Shown piece after piece: positions 19,241 through 39,289 of a stretch of DNA of 64,000 nt (positions within the stretch are counted from its first letter, which is position 1; each line of letters begins with the position of its first letter). This DNA comes from an uncultured Clostridiaceae bacterium. Lineage in GTDB: Bacteria; Bacillota_I; Bacilli_A; RFN20; CAG-288. The stretch is from the NCBI GenBank assembly GCA_964427595.1, contig CAYRUQ010000004.1, positions 4,314-68,313 on the forward strand. Reading direction: 5' to 3'. A program made the position numbers and the translations under genes. The notes beneath the pieces are model-generated. The model was not told the DNA's origin. It saw only the letters and a list, made by a program, of their open reading frames with translations, and did not search any database.

Positions 19241-19642
19241 TTAACGACAATCAGCTAACATGGTGAGAAATTCATGTATCGCCTTCATCTTCATTCGGTA
19301 ATAGCTTGATTTAGAGTAAGTGCCACGCCACCAGTTGTCGTGGATGCCTCTAAAATAGGAACGCCAAAGGATATTGCCGTATTGTGACTCTATCGAGTTG
19401 AGAAGAAAGATAATTGAGATGATATATCTTCCTCTTTCGTTTTCTTTATCAAGAATACCAGTCTTGACAAAACTGATCGTCTTTCTGACAGATGGGATGA
19501 TATCATCCTTCCCATCGAATAAAACGCTCATCTCTTCTGGATAAGAGATAAAAAGAAAGTTACAACTAGAGAGAAAGACATCTCTGATTGCCTTCATCTT
19601 TTTGTTGAGTAGCGCATTTGATTTTTTGTTGTCCAATATCAT
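19241..19642 (-). CDS. Small putative transcription regulator with a sigma-70 region-4 / ArpU-RinA-like C-terminus
   Basis: C-terminus ILWRSYFRGIHDNWWRGTYSKSSYYRMKMKAIHEFLTML matches the pattern ..iL...Y......i...l..S.sTYYR.K.KAl..F of region-4-like HTH proteins. Assignment is by eye only. Confidence 0.35.
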   Translation of the reverse strand: MILDNKKSNALLNKKMKAIRDVFLSSCNFLFISYPEEMSVLFDGKDDIIPSVRKTISFVKTGILDKENERGRYIISIIFLLNSIESQYGNILWRSYFRGIHDNWWRGTYSKSSYYRMKMKAIHEFLTMLADCR

Positions 19643-31395: not shown

Positions 31396-31514
31396 ATTTT
31401 CTACCTCCACTGATATTTTAATCGTAAATAGAAAAGATGTCTTAATTATGCTCAAAAATATGCTTATATCATCTTGTCTTTTCAAGAGTATGAATATAGA
31501 ATACTTGCACAACT

Positions 31515-31558
31515 GGTGGGTCTACCCATGATACCCCACCTAAAACATTAACAGGGGG
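31515..31558 (+). promoter_or_regulatory. Candidate preQ1-I-type riboswitch controlling queT translation
   Basis: P1 GGUGGG (31515-20) pairs with CCCACC (31535-40). Loop UCUACCCAUGAUAC ends in C. A-rich tail CUAAAACAUUAACA is followed by GGGGG (the SD), which can pair with loop ACCC to form a pseudoknot. Resembles B. subtilis AGAGGUUCUAGCUACACCCUCUAUAAAAAACUAAGG. Putative promoter TTGTCT-N17-TAGAAT lies just upstream. Confidence 0.55.
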
Positions 31559-31566
31559 CTTTTTTA

Positions 31567-32148
31567 ATGGAAGAAGAGATTGAAAAAAAGACTATCAAAG
31601 AAAGACTGAAAGAGTATTTCAGTTGCTACAAACTGACGACAAGAGACATCGCTACTAACGCATTAGTCGGTGCTTTGTATGTTGCACTTACCTATGCATT
31701 TTATTGGTGTTCATACGGGATGATTCAATTCAGAATATCAGAGTTTCTGATGCTTTTAGTTTTCTTTAATCCTAACTATATCTATGGTCTTACTATCGGT
31801 TGCGTGCTTGCTAATATCTATTCGGTTACAGCCGGCCTTTCACCTTTAGATATGGTCTTTGGCTCACTAGCTACCCTTCTTGCTTGTCTTCTCATGTCTC
31901 CGATGAGACATCTGTTCTTCGCTAGCTTGATTCCTGCTTTGACTAATGGAGTCATCGTCGGAGCAGAACTGACTTTCTTGATTGAAGGAAGTGAAGTTGC
32001 TTTTTGGATCAACTTCGGTTGGGTCTTCTTAGGTGAGTTAGTAGTAGTCAGTATCTTCAGTTACACTTTGTTCATGATATTGATGAAGAAAAATAAGTCG
32101 TTTCCACATCTGATAAACGCTAAACGAAATCTTGATTTTAAGTTTTAG
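31567..32148 (+). CDS. queT: Queuosine-precursor transporter QueT (ECF S-component type)
   Basis: ALVGALYVALTYAF..SYGMIQFRISEFLMLLVFFNPNY..GCVLANIYS matches the QueT signature (YG.IQFRISE). Confidence 0.8.
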   Translation: MEEEIEKKTIKERLKEYFSCYKLTTRDIATNALVGALYVALTYAFYWCSYGMIQFRISEFLMLLVFFNPNYIYGLTIGCVLANIYSVTAGLSPLDMVFGSLATLLACLLMSPMRHLFFASLIPALTNGVIVGAELTFLIEGSEVAFWINFGWVFLGELVVVSIFSYTLFMILMKKNKSFPHLINAKRNLDFKF

Positions 32149-32254
32149 TTTGTTCGATGAATTTTTCCACACTTTCTTTTCTCAGTGAAAGGGAAAATTG
32201 ATATTTTGTCTTGTTGCGTTATAATTCAACTAGTAATAACTGGAAGGAAAGAAT

Positions 32255-32971
32255 ATGAGAGTTGCTATCGTCGATGACGAAGAGAAGGCAATTGAAGTTT
32301 TTGAAGGCTTTATTAGTCAGTATGCCGAAAAGAACAACCTAAGCTTTCATGTTGATAAATATAAAGATGGCTCAGCTTTTTTAGATAGTTATAACGGCGG
32401 TTATGACATCGTTTTTATGGATATAGCGATGCCTGGATTAAATGGTATCGAGACCGCTAGGAACATGCGTGAGATTGATTCAACAGTCATCTTGATATTC
32501 ATGACAAGTCTTGCTCAATATGCGATCAAAGGTTATGAGGTCGATGCTTTTGATTACTTAGTCAAACCGATAAGTTATGAACTCTTTTCGATCAAATTAG
32601 ATAAGTGTCGTTCGATACTGAAGAAGAGACAACCCAAAACTTTCTTGATCAAGAGCGCTACTGAAACCTATGTTGTTCCTTTTAATGACATCAAGTATGT
32701 GGAAAGTATCAAGCACTATCTCTTCTTCCACCTCTCTGATAAAGAGATTAAGATGAGAGGAACTTTAAACGATATTAAGGCTGAATTCATTAAAAACAAC
32801 TTTGTTGAAATCAATCGTTCTTTATTAGTTAATCTCTCTTTTGTCGACGGATATAATAACAGTGAAGTTATCGTCGCTGGTGAGACATTGCCACTGAGTA
32901 GGATTTATAAGACTGCTTTTCTTGATAAGTTGACAAGATTTATGGGGAGGGCAGTTCCTAGCGGAAGGTAA
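32255..32971 (+). CDS. LytTR-family response regulator
   Basis: Receiver domain (VAIVDDE, DIVFMDIAMPGLNG, K at LVKP) plus C-terminal LytTR DNA-binding domain (YVESIKHYLFFH..EINRSLLVNL). Confidence 0.9.
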   Translation: MRVAIVDDEEKAIEVFEGFISQYAEKNNLSFHVDKYKDGSAFLDSYNGGYDIVFMDIAMPGLNGIETARNMREIDSTVILIFMTSLAQYAIKGYEVDAFDYLVKPISYELFSIKLDKCRSILKKRQPKTFLIKSATETYVVPFNDIKYVESIKHYLFFHLSDKEIKMRGTLNDIKAEFIKNNFVEINRSLLVNLSFVDGYNNSEVIVAGETLPLSRIYKTAFLDKLTRFMGRAVPSGR

Positions 32972-32973
32972 AG

Positions 32974-34251
32974 ATGACTATTCAAGACATTTTTGCCATA
33001 CGTATCAACCATGGATATATTCTGCAGCTGTTTTTAGCTGAATGTCTTTTCTTTTTTCTTTTAAAGAAAAGAAATCACTTTGCCATCAGATTAGTAAGTA
33101 GTTTTACCGGATTTACTTTTTTATCCATCATTTTGACTAATGTCGTTTATTACTACTTGCCTGGTATGAATTCCTTTATCATTTTTCTTCTCTCACTCGT
33201 TTTAGGTGTCGTTTGTTTCCATAGTTTTAAAGATGTCTTATATTGTTTCATCGGTGCTCAACTGCTGCAAAACTTATCACATAATATCGAGATGGTCATC
33301 TATCTCCCATCTTCAGAAAATATCAATGACGCTGGTTGGTTTTTCCTTTCGGTTGGTGTGATGCTTATCGTCTATCTGCTAGCCTACTTCTTCCTAATTA
33401 AACAATATAATGGTAAAAAGCTGACCATTCAGAGATATAGTGTTGTTATCTTTGCTTTCTTAACATCATTGTTTTGTTATTTGATGCAGTACATGCTTGA
33501 GATTTATGAGATCAACACTATTTGGGTGACTTGTCTTCCTTTGCTCATGTGTGATGCTCTACTTATCTTCCTTTTGTTTGGCCTTCAAAACTACAAATGG
33601 AAGATTGATGAGAATGCTGAGTTAGAAAGATTCATAGCCAAAGAAGATGAACATTTCCAGTCTTTAACTGCCAATATTGATCTGATCAATATGAAAGCTC
33701 ATGATCTCAAACACTTCATTTTAGATTTGAGACACGGCAAGGATTTGGATGATAGTGAATTAGCTGATATTCAAGAAGCGGTGGAAGGATATGAACTTAA
33801 ACCAAACACCGGGTGCGCTCCTCTTGATGCTATCTTGGCTGAGAAGATGTATCTGTGTTCTAAATACAACATTCATCTTTCGTTATTAGTAGATGGTAAG
33901 GAACTCTCATTTCTGAAGAGAGGAGATATCGTCTCTGTCTTTGGAAACATACTCAGCAATGCAGTCGAATATGAGATGACTATCGAAGATAAAGAGAAGA
34001 GATATATCACTCTGAAAGTTCTTCGTATAGGAGAGATAATCTCCATCCATGCTGAGAACTACTTTGTTGATACATTGGAGTTTCAAGATAATCTTCCTTT
34101 GACTACTAAAGGAAGTCGAGATAAACACGGATATGGACTCAAATCCGTGAAATATATCGTTGAGAAACACATGGGACATTTGACGATTGGGAAAGTCAAA
34201 GATACCTTTTGCGTAGATATCATCATCCCTGTTCCTAAAGCTAAAAAATAG
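32974..34251 (+). CDS. AgrC/ComD-like (HPK10) membrane sensor histidine kinase
   Basis: About 6 N-terminal TM helices, H-box MKAHDLKHFILDL, N-box FGNILSNAVEY, G-box HGYGLKSVKYIVEKHMG. Confidence 0.85.
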   Translation: MTIQDIFAIRINHGYILQLFLAECLFFFLLKKRNHFAIRLVSSFTGFTFLSIILTNVVYYYLPGMNSFIIFLLSLVLGVVCFHSFKDVLYCFIGAQLLQNLSHNIEMVIYLPSSENINDAGWFFLSVGVMLIVYLLAYFFLIKQYNGKKLTIQRYSVVIFAFLTSLFCYLMQYMLEIYEINTIWVTCLPLLMCDALLIFLLFGLQNYKWKIDENAELERFIAKEDEHFQSLTANIDLINMKAHDLKHFILDLRHGKDLDDSELADIQEAVEGYELKPNTGCAPLDAILAEKMYLCSKYNIHLSLLVDGKELSFLKRGDIVSVFGNILSNAVEYEMTIEDKEKRYITLKVLRIGEIISIHAENYFVDTLEFQDNLPLTTKGSRDKHGYGLKSVKYIVEKHMGHLTIGKVKDTFCVDIIIPVPKAKK

Positions 34252-34259
34252 TAAAGCGC

Positions 34260-34294
34260 TATCAGTTTTTGCCTACTTTTTATCAGTTTTTGCC
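34260..34294 (+). promoter_or_regulatory. Two perfect 14-bp direct repeats TATCAGTTTTTGCC with 21-bp phasing (LytTR-box-like) upstream of the GH3 operon
   Basis: Repeats at 34260-34273 and 34281-34294, core CAGTT as in AgrA-type sites. Extended -10 TGCTAGACT at 34321-34329. Confidence 0.65.
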
Positions 34295-34405
34295 AAGTTA
34301 AATTTGAGAAACCGCTACCATGCTAGACTGATGCCAAGCTGAACGGGAGATTTTAACGTCTGTTTTAAATTCTCCTTATAAGGCAGATCTTACATGGAGG
34401 TTAAA

Positions 34406-37400
34406 ATGAAGATCACCAAATTTGGCAGACCCGGATTATGGCGTTCATTGGCCGCCGTTTCGGGTGTCTTGCTAGTCTTAGCTGTCGGTGGCACTGTCGT
34501 CACCTCTGAGTGGTCGGGCTACATCAATAAGTACCTTAACATCTCTAACACCACTATCGTCAGTGGTGAGGGTGAAGAGGATCCGATCCATTATAAGAGC
34601 GATTTTGACAACTACACCGATGTCATGAACAATGCTAGAGACACGGCGTATCAAATTCAAGCTGAGGGCACCGTTCTTCTCAAGAACGATAACAATGTTT
34701 TACCTTTAGCCTCTGGATCCAATGTCACTTTCTTCGGTTATAACCAAGTCGACATCGCTTATGGCGGAACTGGTTCAGGAGGTGTCACTCCTTCTGAAGA
34801 GAGAGAAGCTGATTTGATTTCAGCTTGTGAAGGAAAACTCAACTACAACGAAGTCATCTATGATTTCTATGAAGAAAACTATGACAATCAGGTTGGTTTC
34901 ATCACAACTACATCATCTTGGTCTGGAACTTCTTATGACTTCCGTAGCGTCGATGCTGTTAATGAAATCAACGCCTCTGAGTTCACCGATGATGTTAAGA
35001 ACAGTTACACCACTTATGGAGATGCTGCTATTTACATCATAACTAGAATCGGTGGTGAAGGAAGCGATCTTTCAACTGAAGGCGATGGCTATCTCGCTAT
35101 CACTGATGACGAAAGAAGCGTCTTAGAAGAGATGCAACAATTCGAAAAGAAGATCGTTCTTCTCAACACCTTCAACGCCATGGAATTAGGTTGGGTTGAA
35201 GAGTATGACATCGATGCCGTTTTATACATCGGTGGTACTGGTGAAGTCGGCATGGACGCCGTCACTGATATCTTGATCGGTGCGGTCACTCCTTCTGGTC
35301 GTTTAGCCGATACTTATGCTTATAGTTCCTTCTCCTCACCTGCGATGCAGAACTTCGGTGATTTCGAATATACAAACGCTGATAACATCGTCAACAGCGA
35401 TTCCACTAACTATGTCGTTTATAGTGAAGGTATTTATGTTGGTTATCGTTATTATGAAACCAGATATGAAGACACTGTCCTTGATCAAGGCAATGCTTCT
35501 TCTACCAAAGGCGCCTTTGAATCCACTGATGGTTGGAATTATTCAGAAGAGGTTCAATATCCTTTCGGATATGGTATCTCTTATGCCGAATTCACTCAGG
35601 AATTAAATGGTGTTGATGTCGATTGGAACAACAAGACCGCTACTGTTTCCGTCAAAGTCACCAACAATTCTAATTCTCAATATACCGGTAAGGATGTTGT
35701 TCAAGTCTATGCTCAAGCTCCCTATACAGAGGGTGGAGTTGAAAAGTCCTCCGTCGTGTTAGTCGGCTTCGGTAAGACTGGCGACCTTGCACCTGGTGCC
35801 TCTACCACTATCACTATCGATGTTGATCTCAGTGATCTCGCTAGCTATGACTACGAGACTTATAAGACCTACATCATGGATGAAGGTAATTATTATTTTG
35901 CTATCGGTGACAACGCCCATGATGCTTTGAATAACATCTTAGCTCAAAAGGGTATGACTACCTCCGATGGTATGGACTATAACGGCGATGCTACTAAAGC
36001 TGTTAGAGTTACCAAGGATGATTTTGATGCTGATGAGTACAGACTCTCTTCACAAAACGTCTCCATCACCAATCAATTTGATGATGTCGACCTCAACTAC
36101 TATGATGAAGATGCTGTCACTTATCTCTCTCGTTCTGCTTGGGATGAAACTTGGCCTGAAACTCTCGATGATTTCACTGCCACTCAAGAGATGGTTGATG
36201 TCATCGCTTCCTACTATGTCAGTTCTACTGACGGAAGTGAAACTCCTACCGCTTACACACCTGGCGATACTGATACTAGCTCCATCACTGTCGGTAGCTC
36301 AGTTGAGTACACTGTCGCTATGATGATCGGTGCTGATTATGATGATCTCGCTTGGGATATCCTCCTCGATCAGCTCACTTTAGATGATTATTATGAATCT
36401 ACCAGACAAGGTAGAATCGCTATCGAAAGCGTCGGCCAACCTGCTACTACTGCTGTTGATGGCCCTGCCGCTTGGACCAAATCTTACTACATCACTGATT
36501 ACACTCAACAATACATGGCTGATACCGTCACCACCACTGATGAACAGTGCGTCGCTTATCCGACCGAAACTGTCGTCGCTGGTACTTGGAACCTCGATCT
36601 CGTTTATGACCTCGGTGTTTCCTTCGGTGAAGAAGGCTTATGGGGCGGAGGTGTTGGATGGTATGGTCCTGGTGCCAACACTCACAGAACTCCTTATGCT
36701 GGTCGTAATTTCGAATACTTCTCTGAAGATGGTTTCTTAGCTGGTAAGCTTTGTGAACAAGAAGTTCAAGGCGCTATGTCTAAGGGTGTCATCTCCTATC
36801 TCAAACACTTCTTCCTCAACGATCAAGAAACCAACAGAATCGGTGTTTGTACTTTCGCTAACGAACAATCTTTACGTGAAATCTACCTTAAAGCTTTCCA
36901 ATATTCCTTTGAGACAACTGGTGAAGATGATCCTGCTTGCAACGGCGTCATGGGTGCCTTCAACAGAATCGGTCTCACTTGGACTGGTCATTCCTCCAAC
37001 CTTTGGAAGAACGTCATGGAAGGTGAGTGGGGATTCACTGGTAACATCACCACTGACTTCGGTCAAAAATCTAACAGCTTGATGGAGCCCAGATTGGCTT
37101 ATGAAGCTGGCACCACGATGTTCTGCACCTCTGGTACCACCTTCTCCACTTACTTACAAGGTGCTGATATCACTACCGATTACAAACTCATGTCCAATAT
37201 GCGTGAAGCTATCCACAGAAACCTCTACAACTTCGCTAACAGTGCTGCTATGAATGGTTCCACCTCTGATTCTCAGATCGTCACCATCGCCACTTGGTAT
37301 GAGATTGCCTTAACCGCTGCTACTGCTGTCACTGCTGTCGTCTTAGCCGGTTCTCTCGTCCTTACTATCCTTCAAAGCTTCGTTCTCAAAGAAAAGGAGG

Positions 37401-37408
37401 CTGAGTAA
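34406..37408 (+). CDS. Glycoside hydrolase family 3 (beta-glucosidase/xylosidase-like), circularly permuted domain order, TM anchors at both ends
   Basis: N-terminal part carries GH3 'C-terminal' domain motifs (GTVLLKNDNNVLPL) plus an Fn3-like segment. C-terminal part carries the catalytic barrel (GPGANTHRTPYAGRNFEYFSEDG, KHFFLNDQETNR, GFTGNITTDFG nucleophile region). Start set to ATG 34406, 5 nt after GGAGG. Confidence 0.8.
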   Translation: MKITKFGRPGLWRSLAAVSGVLLVLAVGGTVVTSEWSGYINKYLNISNTTIVSGEGEEDPIHYKSDFDNYTDVMNNARDTAYQIQAEGTVLLKNDNNVLPLASGSNVTFFGYNQVDIAYGGTGSGGVTPSEEREADLISACEGKLNYNEVIYDFYEENYDNQVGFITTTSSWSGTSYDFRSVDAVNEINASEFTDDVKNSYTTYGDAAIYIITRIGGEGSDLSTEGDGYLAITDDERSVLEEMQQFEKKIVLLNTFNAMELGWVEEYDIDAVLYIGGTGEVGMDAVTDILIGAVTPSGRLADTYAYSSFSSPAMQNFGDFEYTNADNIVNSDSTNYVVYSEGIYVGYRYYETRYEDTVLDQGNASSTKGAFESTDGWNYSEEVQYPFGYGISYAEFTQELNGVDVDWNNKTATVSVKVTNNSNSQYTGKDVVQVYAQAPYTEGGVEKSSVVLVGFGKTGDLAPGASTTITIDVDLSDLASYDYETYKTYIMDEGNYYFAIGDNAHDALNNILAQKGMTTSDGMDYNGDATKAVRVTKDDFDADEYRLSSQNVSITNQFDDVDLNYYDEDAVTYLSRSAWDETWPETLDDFTATQEMVDVIASYYVSSTDGSETPTAYTPGDTDTSSITVGSSVEYTVAMMIGADYDDLAWDILLDQLTLDDYYESTRQGRIAIESVGQPATTAVDGPAAWTKSYYITDYTQQYMADTVTTTDEQCVAYPTETVVAGTWNLDLVYDLGVSFGEEGLWGGGVGWYGPGANTHRTPYAGRNFEYFSEDGFLAGKLCEQEVQGAMSKGVISYLKHFFLNDQETNRIGVCTFANEQSLREIYLKAFQYSFETTGEDDPACNGVMGAFNRIGLTWTGHSSNLWKNVMEGEWGFTGNITTDFGQKSNSLMEPRLAYEAGTTMFCTSGTTFSTYLQGADITTDYKLMSNMREAIHRNLYNFANSAAMNGSTSDSQIVTIATWYEIALTAATAVTAVVLAGSLVLTILQSFVLKEKEAE

Positions 37409-37410
37409 AA

Positions 37411-37878
37411 ATGAATTTAGTCAAGAGATTCCTCAAGAATAAGAAAGTCGGTTGGTATTTATCAGTCGTCAGCTTAATTCTTGGTATCATCACTTTAATC
37501 GTCTACACTGTTAGAGGCGGAAACTATCTCTCTCCTGTCTCTAATGCTGCTGTTGCTCTTCTCGTCTTAGCTATCCTCACCAACCTCGCTGTCCTTGTCT
37601 TAGACTTCAAGATCGGTGCCTTCGTTCCTTTAATCTTATATGCTTGTGTCGTAGCTGTATTACTCAACACTGAGATGCTCTTCATCACCAACGTCATCTT
37701 CGGTGTTGATGGTAATTACTTCGAAACATCATTCTTCACCTTCATCGTCACCAGCATTCTCGCTACTATCGTCTCTGCTGTCGCCTTCGCATTAGGTCTC
37801 TCTAAGAGCAACAAACTCTTAGCTGATGAAGAAGCTACTGAAGAAGAAGCTGTTGAAGAAACTACGGCTTCTAACTGA
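37411..37878 (+). CDS. Four-TM membrane protein with acidic C-terminal tail, unknown function
   Basis: Starts 2 nt after the GH3 stop, with the SD AAGGAGG inside the GH3 3' end. Tail reads ADEEATEEEAVEETTASN. Confidence 0.5.
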   Translation: MNLVKRFLKNKKVGWYLSVVSLILGIITLIVYTVRGGNYLSPVSNAAVALLVLAILTNLAVLVLDFKIGAFVPLILYACVVAVLLNTEMLFITNVIFGVDGNYFETSFFTFIVTSILATIVSAVAFALGLSKSNKLLADEEATEEEAVEETTASN

Positions 37879-37954: not shown

Positions 37955-38902
37955 TTGAAACCTAAGTACTTGTTACCCGCTTTTTTATTTTGTTTCACAT
38001 TCTCTCTTAGTTCCTGTTCTACGAGTAACGATACTGCTGCAATCACCTCCTGGGAGGTGCCAGATAAGTATCGTCAAGAGAATGAGGAAGCACCTGGTCA
38101 AGTCGTTGAAGTGACATATACTGCCAACGATTATGCTTTAGAATCTGGTGCTACTGAAGAGAAGTATTGCAATGTCTATCTGCCTTATGGATATGACGAA
38201 ACAAAAGAATATGATATCCTTTATCTCTTACATGGAACTGATCGTCAAACTGTCGTTCATCAAAACACTTGGCTTTATACGATTGGGATGAAAGACATCC
38301 TAGATAATCTCATCTATTATGGTGATATTGATCCTTTGATTGTCGTGGCTCCCAGCACCTATAGCTATGAGCTTTATGGCGATGATGATCCAAATAGTTC
38401 AATCACGGAGATGACTCCTACTAAAACTAACTCCAACGCTAATTTCCCTAGTGAGTTAAGAAATGACATCATCCCTGTTATCGAAAGTTTATTTTCTACC
38501 TATGCTGAAGACACCACTGATGAAGGCCTTATCGCTTCTAGAGATCATCGAGCGATAGCTGGTTTATCAAATGGATGTCGTCTCACTTATAGAGCCGGCT
38601 TAGTCAATAACTTTGATATCTTCAGCTACTTCGGCTGTTTCTCTTCTTATATTGATTCTGAAGAGATTTTAGAAGCTTTGAATGCATCTGAAAATGTTGG
38701 ATATGAAATCAATTACATGTTCAATGCTGATGGCATTTATGACTTCGCTTATAACGGACATAAACAGATGATCAATGAGTTATTAGAAGATGATCACTTC
38801 AATAGTGAAAACACTGAATATGTCACGATCAATTTCGGTTATCATTCAGCTAGGTCTTGGAGAGTCGGTTTGTATGATGCGCTTTTGAGGTTCTTCAAAT
38901 GA
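37955..38902 (+). CDS. Lipoprotein, 'putative esterase' (CE1/esterase-D-like) family
   Basis: TTG start 7 nt after AGGAGG. Lipobox FSLSSC. YLLHG and AGLSNG (GxSxG) motifs. Confidence 0.65.
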   Translation: MKPKYLLPAFLFCFTFSLSSCSTSNDTAAITSWEVPDKYRQENEEAPGQVVEVTYTANDYALESGATEEKYCNVYLPYGYDETKEYDILYLLHGTDRQTVVHQNTWLYTIGMKDILDNLIYYGDIDPLIVVAPSTYSYELYGDDDPNSSITEMTPTKTNSNANFPSELRNDIIPVIESLFSTYAEDTTDEGLIASRDHRAIAGLSNGCRLTYRAGLVNNFDIFSYFGCFSSYIDSEEILEALNASENVGYEINYMFNADGIYDFAYNGHKQMINELLEDDHFNSENTEYVTINFGYHSARSWRVGLYDALLRFFK

Positions 38903-39258
38903 GCGAGAGAATAAAAAAGATTGAGCATATTCTTTATATCGCTCTTCCCATCTTGATTTTGGTAGCTTGTTATGGAGAATTCATTCTTTGTTTTATCAGA
39001 GGATATGAAGAACTTTGGTACACGATACTCGTGCCTTCTATCGTGTGTACCATCCTGACCATCTTCGGATATAAGACGCATCTTAAATGGCTTTACTTTA
39101 TTGCAACTGTCATCATCATAGCTGGCACGGTTTTATTAATCGGATTTCCTTCATATATAATGTTTGTCGCATTGATATGTGGTGGAATCTCACTGATTGT
39201 TGAAATTGTTCTTCTTGTCTTTCACTTCCTTAAGAAAAGACAACCTGTTACAGAATAA
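38899..39258 (+). CDS. Small multi-pass membrane protein, unknown function
   Basis: 119 aa, 3-4 hydrophobic helices, ATGA overlap with the esterase stop. Confidence 0.45.
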   Translation: MSERIKKIEHILYIALPILILVACYGEFILCFIRGYEELWYTILVPSIVCTILTIFGYKTHLKWLYFIATVIIIAGTVLLIGFPSYIMFVALICGGISLIVEIVLLVFHFLKKRQPVTE

Positions 39259-39262
39259 ATAA

Positions 39263-39289
39263 AGTGGCGTAGTGATACGCCACTTTTTT
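39263..39289. terminator. Bidirectional intrinsic terminator
   Basis: agtggcgt (39263-70) pairs with acgccact (39277-84), followed by T5 and preceded by an A-rich tract. Confidence 0.75.

Follow-up and report, generated by a model that had tools for sequence, protein, structure and literature searches.

Two identical 14-mers lie between the gene for an AgrC-class histidine kinase and that for a GH3 glycosidase in a 64-kb stretch of DNA (the window, meaning this stretch at its full length). The arrangement raises the question of whether these repeats tie the kinase, and the LytTR regulator encoded beside it, to the expression of the glycosidase, and what such a kinase would sense. A sequence-only reading had proposed that the repeats couple the adjacent two-component system to the GH3 operon, and comparative evidence now supports this proposal. 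The repeats are very probably the operator of the adjacent LytTR regulator, through which it would activate an operon encoding the GH3 enzyme, a four-transmembrane (4-TM) protein, a CE1-type esterase lipoprotein and a second 4-TM protein, ending at 39261-39286. The operator belongs to a known class, and the circuit is widespread, having previously been noticed merely as a gene neighbourhood.

The repeat pair and its promoter

The elements between the kinase and GH3 genes are as follows.

34260-34273, forward strand: distal repeat of the putative operator, TATCAGTTTTTGCC (sequence read, repeat search, comparison and weight matrix)
34281-34294, forward strand: proximal repeat of the putative operator, TATCAGTTTTTGCC, 21 bp 3' of the distal copy (same basis)
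34298-34303, forward strand: weak -35-like hexamer TTAAAT, predicted from the sequence, with a 20-nt spacer to the -10
34321-34329, forward strand: extended -10, TGcTAGACT (TGCTAGACT; TGn followed by TAGACT), read from the sequence

The kinase gene stops with TAG at 34249-34251, and the distal repeat starts nine bases on. The positions that the sequence-only reading gave for the two 14-mers, and their start-to-start distance of 21 bp, are all correct, and a repeat search lengthened the pair to 19 nt, identical at 17 of 19 positions. Its extended -10 was likewise confirmed. Within the window, 3 nt separate the end of the proximal repeat from TTAAAT, and 29 nt separate it from the TAGACT hexamer; together with the fixed distance to the -10 in relatives, this agrees with the suggestion that the repeats lie just upstream of a weak -35. 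The 70-nt leader of the GH3 operon matched no Rfam family, and its predicted hairpin was no better than those of shuffled sequences (z -1.06).

This layout resembles that of LytTR operators in several respects. Firstly, the repeats are in direct orientation, both in the window and in 28 orthologous loci. Secondly, a regulator with a LytTR domain (PF04397, and alignment to AgrA) is encoded beside them. Thirdly, the repeats of the window are 13-14 bp long, with a spacer of 7-8 nt and a phase of 21 bp. Published LytTR sites consist of 9-bp direct repeats with a 12-bp spacer, positioned 4-11 bp 5' of the -35 and sometimes accompanied by an extended -10 (PMC6193735). The boxes recognised by VirR are 12 bp long and 7-8 nt apart, located right 5' of the -35 at a position that is critical, and AgrA-dependent promoters have over-long spacers, of 18 and 20 nt, between their -35 and -10 elements.

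Conservation of the repeats across orthologous loci

Orthologous loci were fetched via three kinase homologues, two homologues of the 4-TM protein, and alignment-based scans of genomes and metagenomes; a single-sequence locus search matched nothing, and an alignment-based search was required. The order regulator-kinase-GH3 is kept wherever the kinase is at least 36 % identical and downstream sequence is present, with the exception of two loci (L115 and L116), and in most such loci the genes for the 4-TM protein, the esterase and the second small protein are retained as well. Relative to one of these loci (L004), identities are 55 % for the regulator, 58 % for the kinase, and 72 % for both the 4-TM protein and the esterase. 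The cassette has a cultured actinobacterial host, Bifidobacterium asteroides ESL0199 (L010), and is also held by two bins labelled Prevotellaceae and Paludibacteraceae, although these labels may reflect mis-binning.

A repeat pair of the form nnCAnTTTTTGCC-N8-nnnnnTTTTTGCC was found 3' of the kinase gene in 28 non-identical orthologous loci, including that of B. asteroides. The pair lies 0-130 nt past the kinase stop codon, other than in one locus (L088) in which the distance is 599 nt and an extra ORF intervenes. A distance of 21 bp separates the TTGCC ends of the paired repeats in every orthologous locus. Of the 28 loci, 25 have a TAnnnT hexamer, often with TGn ahead of it, 28-29 nt past the second repeat. 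In relatives, TTGAAA or TTGATA is present 4-5 nt past the second repeat, with an 18-nt spacer. Hence the pair, its phase and its distance to the -10 recur in 28 diverged loci, which answers affirmatively the sequence-only reading's question of whether the repeats would be conserved in relatives. The consensus of 27 non-identical sites is nnCAnTTTTTGCC-AaAAannn-nnnnnTTTTTGCC-Aa, with information content of about 2 bits per column in TTGCC vs about 0.1 bit in the flanks. As the GC content of the 28 loci spans 28-59 %, composition cannot explain the motif.

The conserved core differs from that originally suggested. The repeats were thought to carry a CAGTT-like core, and CAGTT is indeed contained in the copies of the window, but the clade conserves only CA..TTTTTGCC, such that its core comprises TTTTTGCC(A), to which the distal repeat adds CA. 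The published LytTR consensus, with its C/A-GTT core, is therefore matched only in part. In clades of the cassette that are further removed, the same place is taken by other boxes, of the GCCGTT type and again with a 21-bp phase: one locus with a kinase 34 % identical (L143) has GCCGTTTTTGAT at the promoters of both the regulator and GH3 genes, and another with a kinase 29 % identical (L144) has GCCGTTCAC present twice. Hence the CAGTT of the window appears to echo a family-wide C(A/C)GTT core, with selection within the clade acting on TTTTTGCC.

The site was also evaluated using a weight matrix of 36 columns, constructed from 24 orthologous loci with the window left out. The operator of the window scored 25.9 bits, while ten shuffles peaked at 12.3 bits. 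The second-best match in the window, at 19456-19491, scored 15.6 bits and was the sole further one to exceed the maximum of the shuffles; it has TTGAC replacing TTGCC, and sits within a minus-strand ORF (19241-19642); it is probably a chance match. The 64-kb window therefore contains one true weight-matrix site and one weak intragenic match. The exact 14-mer itself has two copies only in the window, both at the operator.

These data bear directly on whether the pair might be a local duplication, or a chance match, without any regulatory role. The two copies are perfectly identical, as they would be after a recent 21-bp duplication, and this identity is peculiar to the window, with the copies in relatives agreeing at 8.9 of 13 positions on average. 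However, the pair is kept in 28 loci, with TTGCC invariant in both copies while the flanks are not conserved, and in the closest relative (L140) the copies differ by one base, agreeing at 12 of 13 positions, with phase and position kept. Furthermore, a first-order Markov model predicts just 0.055 exact 14-mer direct repeats 15-60 nt apart per 64 kb, and hence per window. The comparative data effectively refute an origin by duplication or chance, leaving it scarcely credible. If the pair is an operator, its perfectly identical copies may stem from a recent conversion, or from selection favouring half-sites of equal strength.

The presence of the motif goes with that of the cassette. No motif site was found at paralogous kinase loci, in which the kinase is at most 34 % identical and GH3 is missing, while another locus (L015) has the motif, with a kinase only 32 % identical, yet with the GH3 and 4-TM genes present. 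The two exceptional loci, L115 and L116, are a rearranged pair of metagenome contigs that have a kinase as in L110 and diverge abruptly about 60 nt past its stop codon, before the operator, into unrelated coding sequence; they represent a naturally occurring variant, its operator and GH3 gene having been removed or displaced. In L141 (9728-14417), genes for a 925-aa protein without a family match and for a second permuted GH3 of at least 1067 aa come after the cassette, with no TTTTTGCC pair evident in the 900-nt gap before those two genes.

The regulator, the kinase and the enzyme operon

The remaining features of the proposed circuit are as follows.

32198-32225, forward strand: likely constitutive sigma-70 promoter of the regulator-kinase pair, TTGATA-16-TATAAT (sequence)
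32255-32971, forward strand: response regulator of 238 aa, with receiver and LytTR domains (Pfam, conservation, alignment to AgrA 3BS1)
32974-34251, forward strand: histidine kinase of 425 aa, with a seven-helix membrane sensor and a HATPase_c_5 (AgrC/ComD-type GHKL) core (Pfam, homologues, structural model)
34406-37408, forward strand: domain-permuted GH3 glycosidase, with an N-terminal signal anchor and a C-terminal TM helix (Pfam, sequence, PDB match)
37411-37878, forward strand: four-TM protein of 155 aa (homologues, hydrophobic helices)
37955-38902, forward strand: esterase lipoprotein, CE1 feruloyl-esterase-like (Pfam PF00756, lipobox LSSC, PDB 1GKK)
38899-39258, forward strand: four-TM protein of 119 aa, the start of which overlaps the esterase stop (ATGA) (ORF list, hydrophobic helices)
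39261-39286: bidirectional intrinsic terminator, closing this operon and the convergent rarA/mgsA (sequence)

The LytTR domain of the regulator is identified with an E value of 9e-17, and the receiver residues D8, D56 (the phospho-acceptor) and K104 are present. In the alignment to AgrA, H154 pairs with AgrA H169, and FVEINRS with the FFRCHNS motif. Six positions (S151, K153, Y155, F158, R168 and S189) have a conservation of 90 % or more within the orthogroup, while being found in at most 38 % of paralogues, and these orthogroup-specific LytTR positions fit with the recognition of a clade-specific box. The nearest relative of the kinase is no closer than 59 % identity, among 5.8 billion proteins. 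The host belongs to a Bacillota lineage that is uncultured and low in GC.

A scan of the window with the weight matrix found no operator repeats ahead of the regulator gene. In several relatives, by contrast, a second repeat pair precedes the regulator gene (L001, L003, L004/L087, L089/L090, L103 and L141), followed by a degenerate third repeat in phase, and then by TTGAnA about 7 nt on; in L141 the regulator promoter is present in full, as TTGATA-17-TATAAT. Such an operator layout, providing positive feedback, is known for LytTR systems (PMC6193735), and by this analogy the pairs in relatives would represent the autoregulation typical of the family. To judge from its promoter, the regulator-kinase pair of the window looks constitutive, with control through the operator limited to the enzyme operon. 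The gene queT abuts the regulator promoter (32149-32254), and a remnant-like GAATTTTTCCA is left at 32158-32168, which suggests that an operator once present upstream was lost upon the arrival of the cassette beside queT.

The lack of an operator at the regulator operon of the window is what might be anticipated were the repeats a genuine operator read by some other regulator, either a paralogous LytTR protein or an unrelated factor, with the adjacent pair acting elsewhere. Yet this regulator-kinase orthogroup is accompanied by the motif in different phyla, and in loci of 28-59 % GC; the motif is also situated 5' of the regulator gene itself in six relatives; and the other clades of the cassette have different boxes. 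Recognition by another protein consequently appears quite unlikely, and the adjacent regulator remains the preferred candidate.

Annotation with Pfam gives the gene order QueT (31567-32148), regulator, kinase, GH3, 155-aa protein, esterase and 119-aa protein, then convergent rarA/mgsA. The gaps from the regulator through to the 119-aa gene are 2, 154, 2, 76 and -4 nt. The terminator at 39261-39286 is the only intrinsic terminator 3' of the regulator gene, and none is found between the kinase and GH3 genes. The sequence-only reading had considered it possible that the esterase belonged to the operon, and synteny, the coupled gene junctions and this single terminator all argue that it does. Upstream of the cassette, the leader of queT (31494-31569) has no Rfam match, even at E <=1.

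The likely start codon of the GH3 gene is the ATG at 34406, preceded by a GGAGG Shine-Dalgarno sequence at 34396-34400, while the ORF list opens at an in-frame ATG at 34394. The domains of this protein of about 1000 aa are permuted, Pfam placing GH3_C at 93-351, the Fn3-like domain at 434-507 and the GH3 N-terminal barrel at 721-890, and the same order is found in L009, L010, L099, L103 and L110. It matches beta-glucosidases, including the 921-residue PDB entry 5K6L (E 2e-65), with the best stretch being the N-terminal sandwich/Fn3 part. The 5K6L enzyme is from a rumen metagenome and has been described with a permuted domain order. Unlike 5K6L, the GH3 protein of the window has an N-terminal anchor and a C-terminal TM helix, and is encoded in a regulated operon. 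The notion that this C-terminal helix is a specially conserved interaction surface was rejected, its conservation (0.49) being below that of the catalytic parts; a juxtamembrane TWY(E/D) is the sole motif kept around it.

The esterase has a lipobox (FSLSSC) at its N-terminus, and matches the CE1 feruloyl-esterase domains of Clostridium thermocellum XynY and XynZ (1GKK, E 9e-27). The 155-aa and 119-aa membrane proteins have no match in Pfam or NCBIfam, on which basis assignment to an AgrB-like or other known family was rejected. Homologues of the 155-aa protein carry the label Candidatus Enterosoma. This protein is 72-79 % identical in relatives, vs 58 % for the kinase and approximately 41-47 % for GH3 (best segments), and such strong constraint on a tiny membrane protein merits a study of its own.

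From these elements we infer binding of the regulator, activation rather than repression, and the position of the transcription start. The kinase (32974-34251) would phosphorylate the regulator at D56, and two LytTR domains would then bind the two repeats in tandem, on the same face of the helix. The proximal repeat would end 4-5 nt 5' of the poor -35 region, at about position -41, from where the bound regulator would recruit RNA polymerase to the extended -10 promoter TGcTAGACT, with transcription predicted to start near 34336. The resulting transcript would run to the terminator, encoding in turn the GH3 enzyme, the membrane protein of 155 aa, the feruloyl-esterase-like lipoprotein and the membrane protein of 119 aa. 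The regulator-kinase pair would be expressed from its own good sigma-70 promoter, without autoregulation in this genome. As no terminator intervenes between the kinase and GH3 genes, read-through may supply the enzymes at a basal level.

The same absence of a terminator could accommodate an opposite effect, in which binding of the repeats by the adjacent regulator leads to repression, for instance by blocking read-through from the kinase gene or occluding the promoter, and there is a precedent in the repression exerted by AgrA downstream of the bsaA promoter (PMC4227749). Nevertheless, the repeats here precede the -35, their helical distance from the -10 being fixed, and are accompanied by a poor or mis-spaced -35, which is the layout of activator-dependent LytTR promoters; the operators of the regulator genes in relatives are likewise upstream of a -35. 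Repression is hence very unlikely, and activation remains the favoured outcome of binding.

The kinase cue and related systems

The sequence-only reading noted that no agrB/agrD-like or other pheromone gene was visible, and this holds true: Pfam searches of the neighbouring genes, and inspection of the orthologous loci, found no AgrB/AgrD, ComC or C39 ABC exporter. The gaps between the genes of the conserved cassette, listed above, leave no room for a pheromone gene. In all-against-all comparisons, the sensor of the kinase has an identity of 49.5 %, vs 48.8 % for the cytoplasmic part, and its helices contain the invariant polar residues H13, Q18, E23, N56, Q99, N100 and E106. In the agr specificity groups, the receptors of strain-specific pheromones (AgrC) diverge faster in the sensor than in the kinase core. 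The description of this protein as a peptide-type kinase is therefore apt as a family label (HATPase_c_5), but as a statement about its ligand it is at odds with the absence of a pheromone gene and with a sensor that is as conserved as the catalytic core. The model of the sensor is confident (pLDDT 89), with no significant fold match in the PDB (best E 0.4, TM <=0.26). A label on one homologue gave rise to the idea that the sensor is a SWEET/PQ-loop-like sugar-binding domain; this was rejected, there being no Pfam match, and no PDB fold match for the model.

The products of the operon are all surface or membrane proteins, resembling a beta-glycosidase and a feruloyl esterase, and include no transporter. 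We therefore favour a conserved non-peptide cue. Such a cue would plausibly be accessible from the membrane, and be either linked to plant glycosides or hydroxycinnamates, or else consist of the state of the co-encoded membrane proteins, or a relay by the 4-TM protein. Tentatively, and with somewhat less than even confidence, the AgrC-class kinase could be a dedicated sensor of a conserved plant-glycoside or feruloyl-ester cue, and the cassette a self-contained sense-and-degrade module, which would have moved between Bacillota lineages, and into Bifidobacterium, with its own cis-element. Candidate cues under this proposal are a membrane-partitioning aglycone or hydroxycinnamate freed by the GH3 and CE1 enzymes, or the state of the 4-TM partner.

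The predicted circuit shares components with several characterised systems. As at the agr P2/P3 promoters of Staphylococcus aureus, a LytTR regulator is paired with a multi-pass kinase of the AgrC class (HATPase_c_5), and two direct repeats are 5' of a promoter with sub-optimal spacing (18/20 nt there, about 20 nt here). Unlike agr, there is no agrB or agrD, and the target is a glycosidase/esterase operon rather than an RNA effector and toxins; the box is centred on TTTTTGCC, there is no autoregulatory box in this genome, and the sensor is conserved rather than hypervariable. The VirS/VirR system of Clostridium perfringens is similar in having direct repeats of 12-13 bp, with a spacer of 7-8 nt and a phase of about 21 bp, directly 5' of the -35, whereas its box sequence and regulon differ. 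The VirR box is CCAGTTnTnCAC, resembling TCAGTTTTTGCC, a likeness of value only as a lead. The HdrRM and BrsRM systems of Streptococcus mutans have direct repeats with 12-bp spacing 4-11 bp 5' of the -35, an extended -10, and small membrane proteins alongside (PMC6193735). However, these lack a kinase and receiver, with a membrane inhibitor controlling the regulator (PMC6193735), whereas here there is a complete two-component pair.

A parallel in gene content comes from Butyrivibrio proteoclasticus B316, in which Kelly et al. 2010 described three LytTR regulators, each near a secreted GH3 with a C-terminal TM helix, and proposed that the regulators control polysaccharide-degrading enzymes (PMC2914790). 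The likeness to the present locus, where a LytTR regulator likewise neighbours a GH3 of this kind, is one of gene association only: that paper concerns the neighbourhood, and contains no operator, promoter, esterase or small membrane proteins (PMC2914790). A LytTR regulator also appears within an arabinoxylan locus in a table of Roseburia loci. The pairing of such a kinase with a glycosidase, regarded as unusual when the sequence was considered in isolation, instead belongs to a widespread cassette, and the association was remarked upon in 2010 (PMC2914790). A search of the literature found no paper defining the operator, signal or function of LytTR-GH3 systems.

The Firmicutes of the gut and rumen contain very many orphan AgrC/LytTR pairs without a known signal or target. 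In this case, the target and operator have been defined by comparison alone, as TTTTTGCC repeats with a 21-bp phase, 28-29 nt from the -10, and hence the circuit is directly testable. Should the kinase sense a plant-derived compound, rather than a peptide, the known range of inputs for this kinase class would be extended. It would also represent a form of Gram-positive control of surface glycosidases and feruloyl esterases that involves neither a dedicated transporter nor a regulator of the AraC or LacI type.

Elsewhere in the window, a second exact direct repeat with a 21-bp phase is present at 1817-1854, comprising CAAATTTTGAAATCTCA at 1817 and 1838, with TTGAC before each copy. The 430-nt gap in which it is situated is flanked by an ABC ATPase gene (minus strand, 7-1743) and by a gene for a PNP/UDP-phosphorylase-like protein (2177-2887), the latter being followed by a gene for a heavy-metal P-type ATPase. 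The sequence is unrelated to the TTTTTGCC box, and this pair could represent tandem promoters, or the operator of another regulator.
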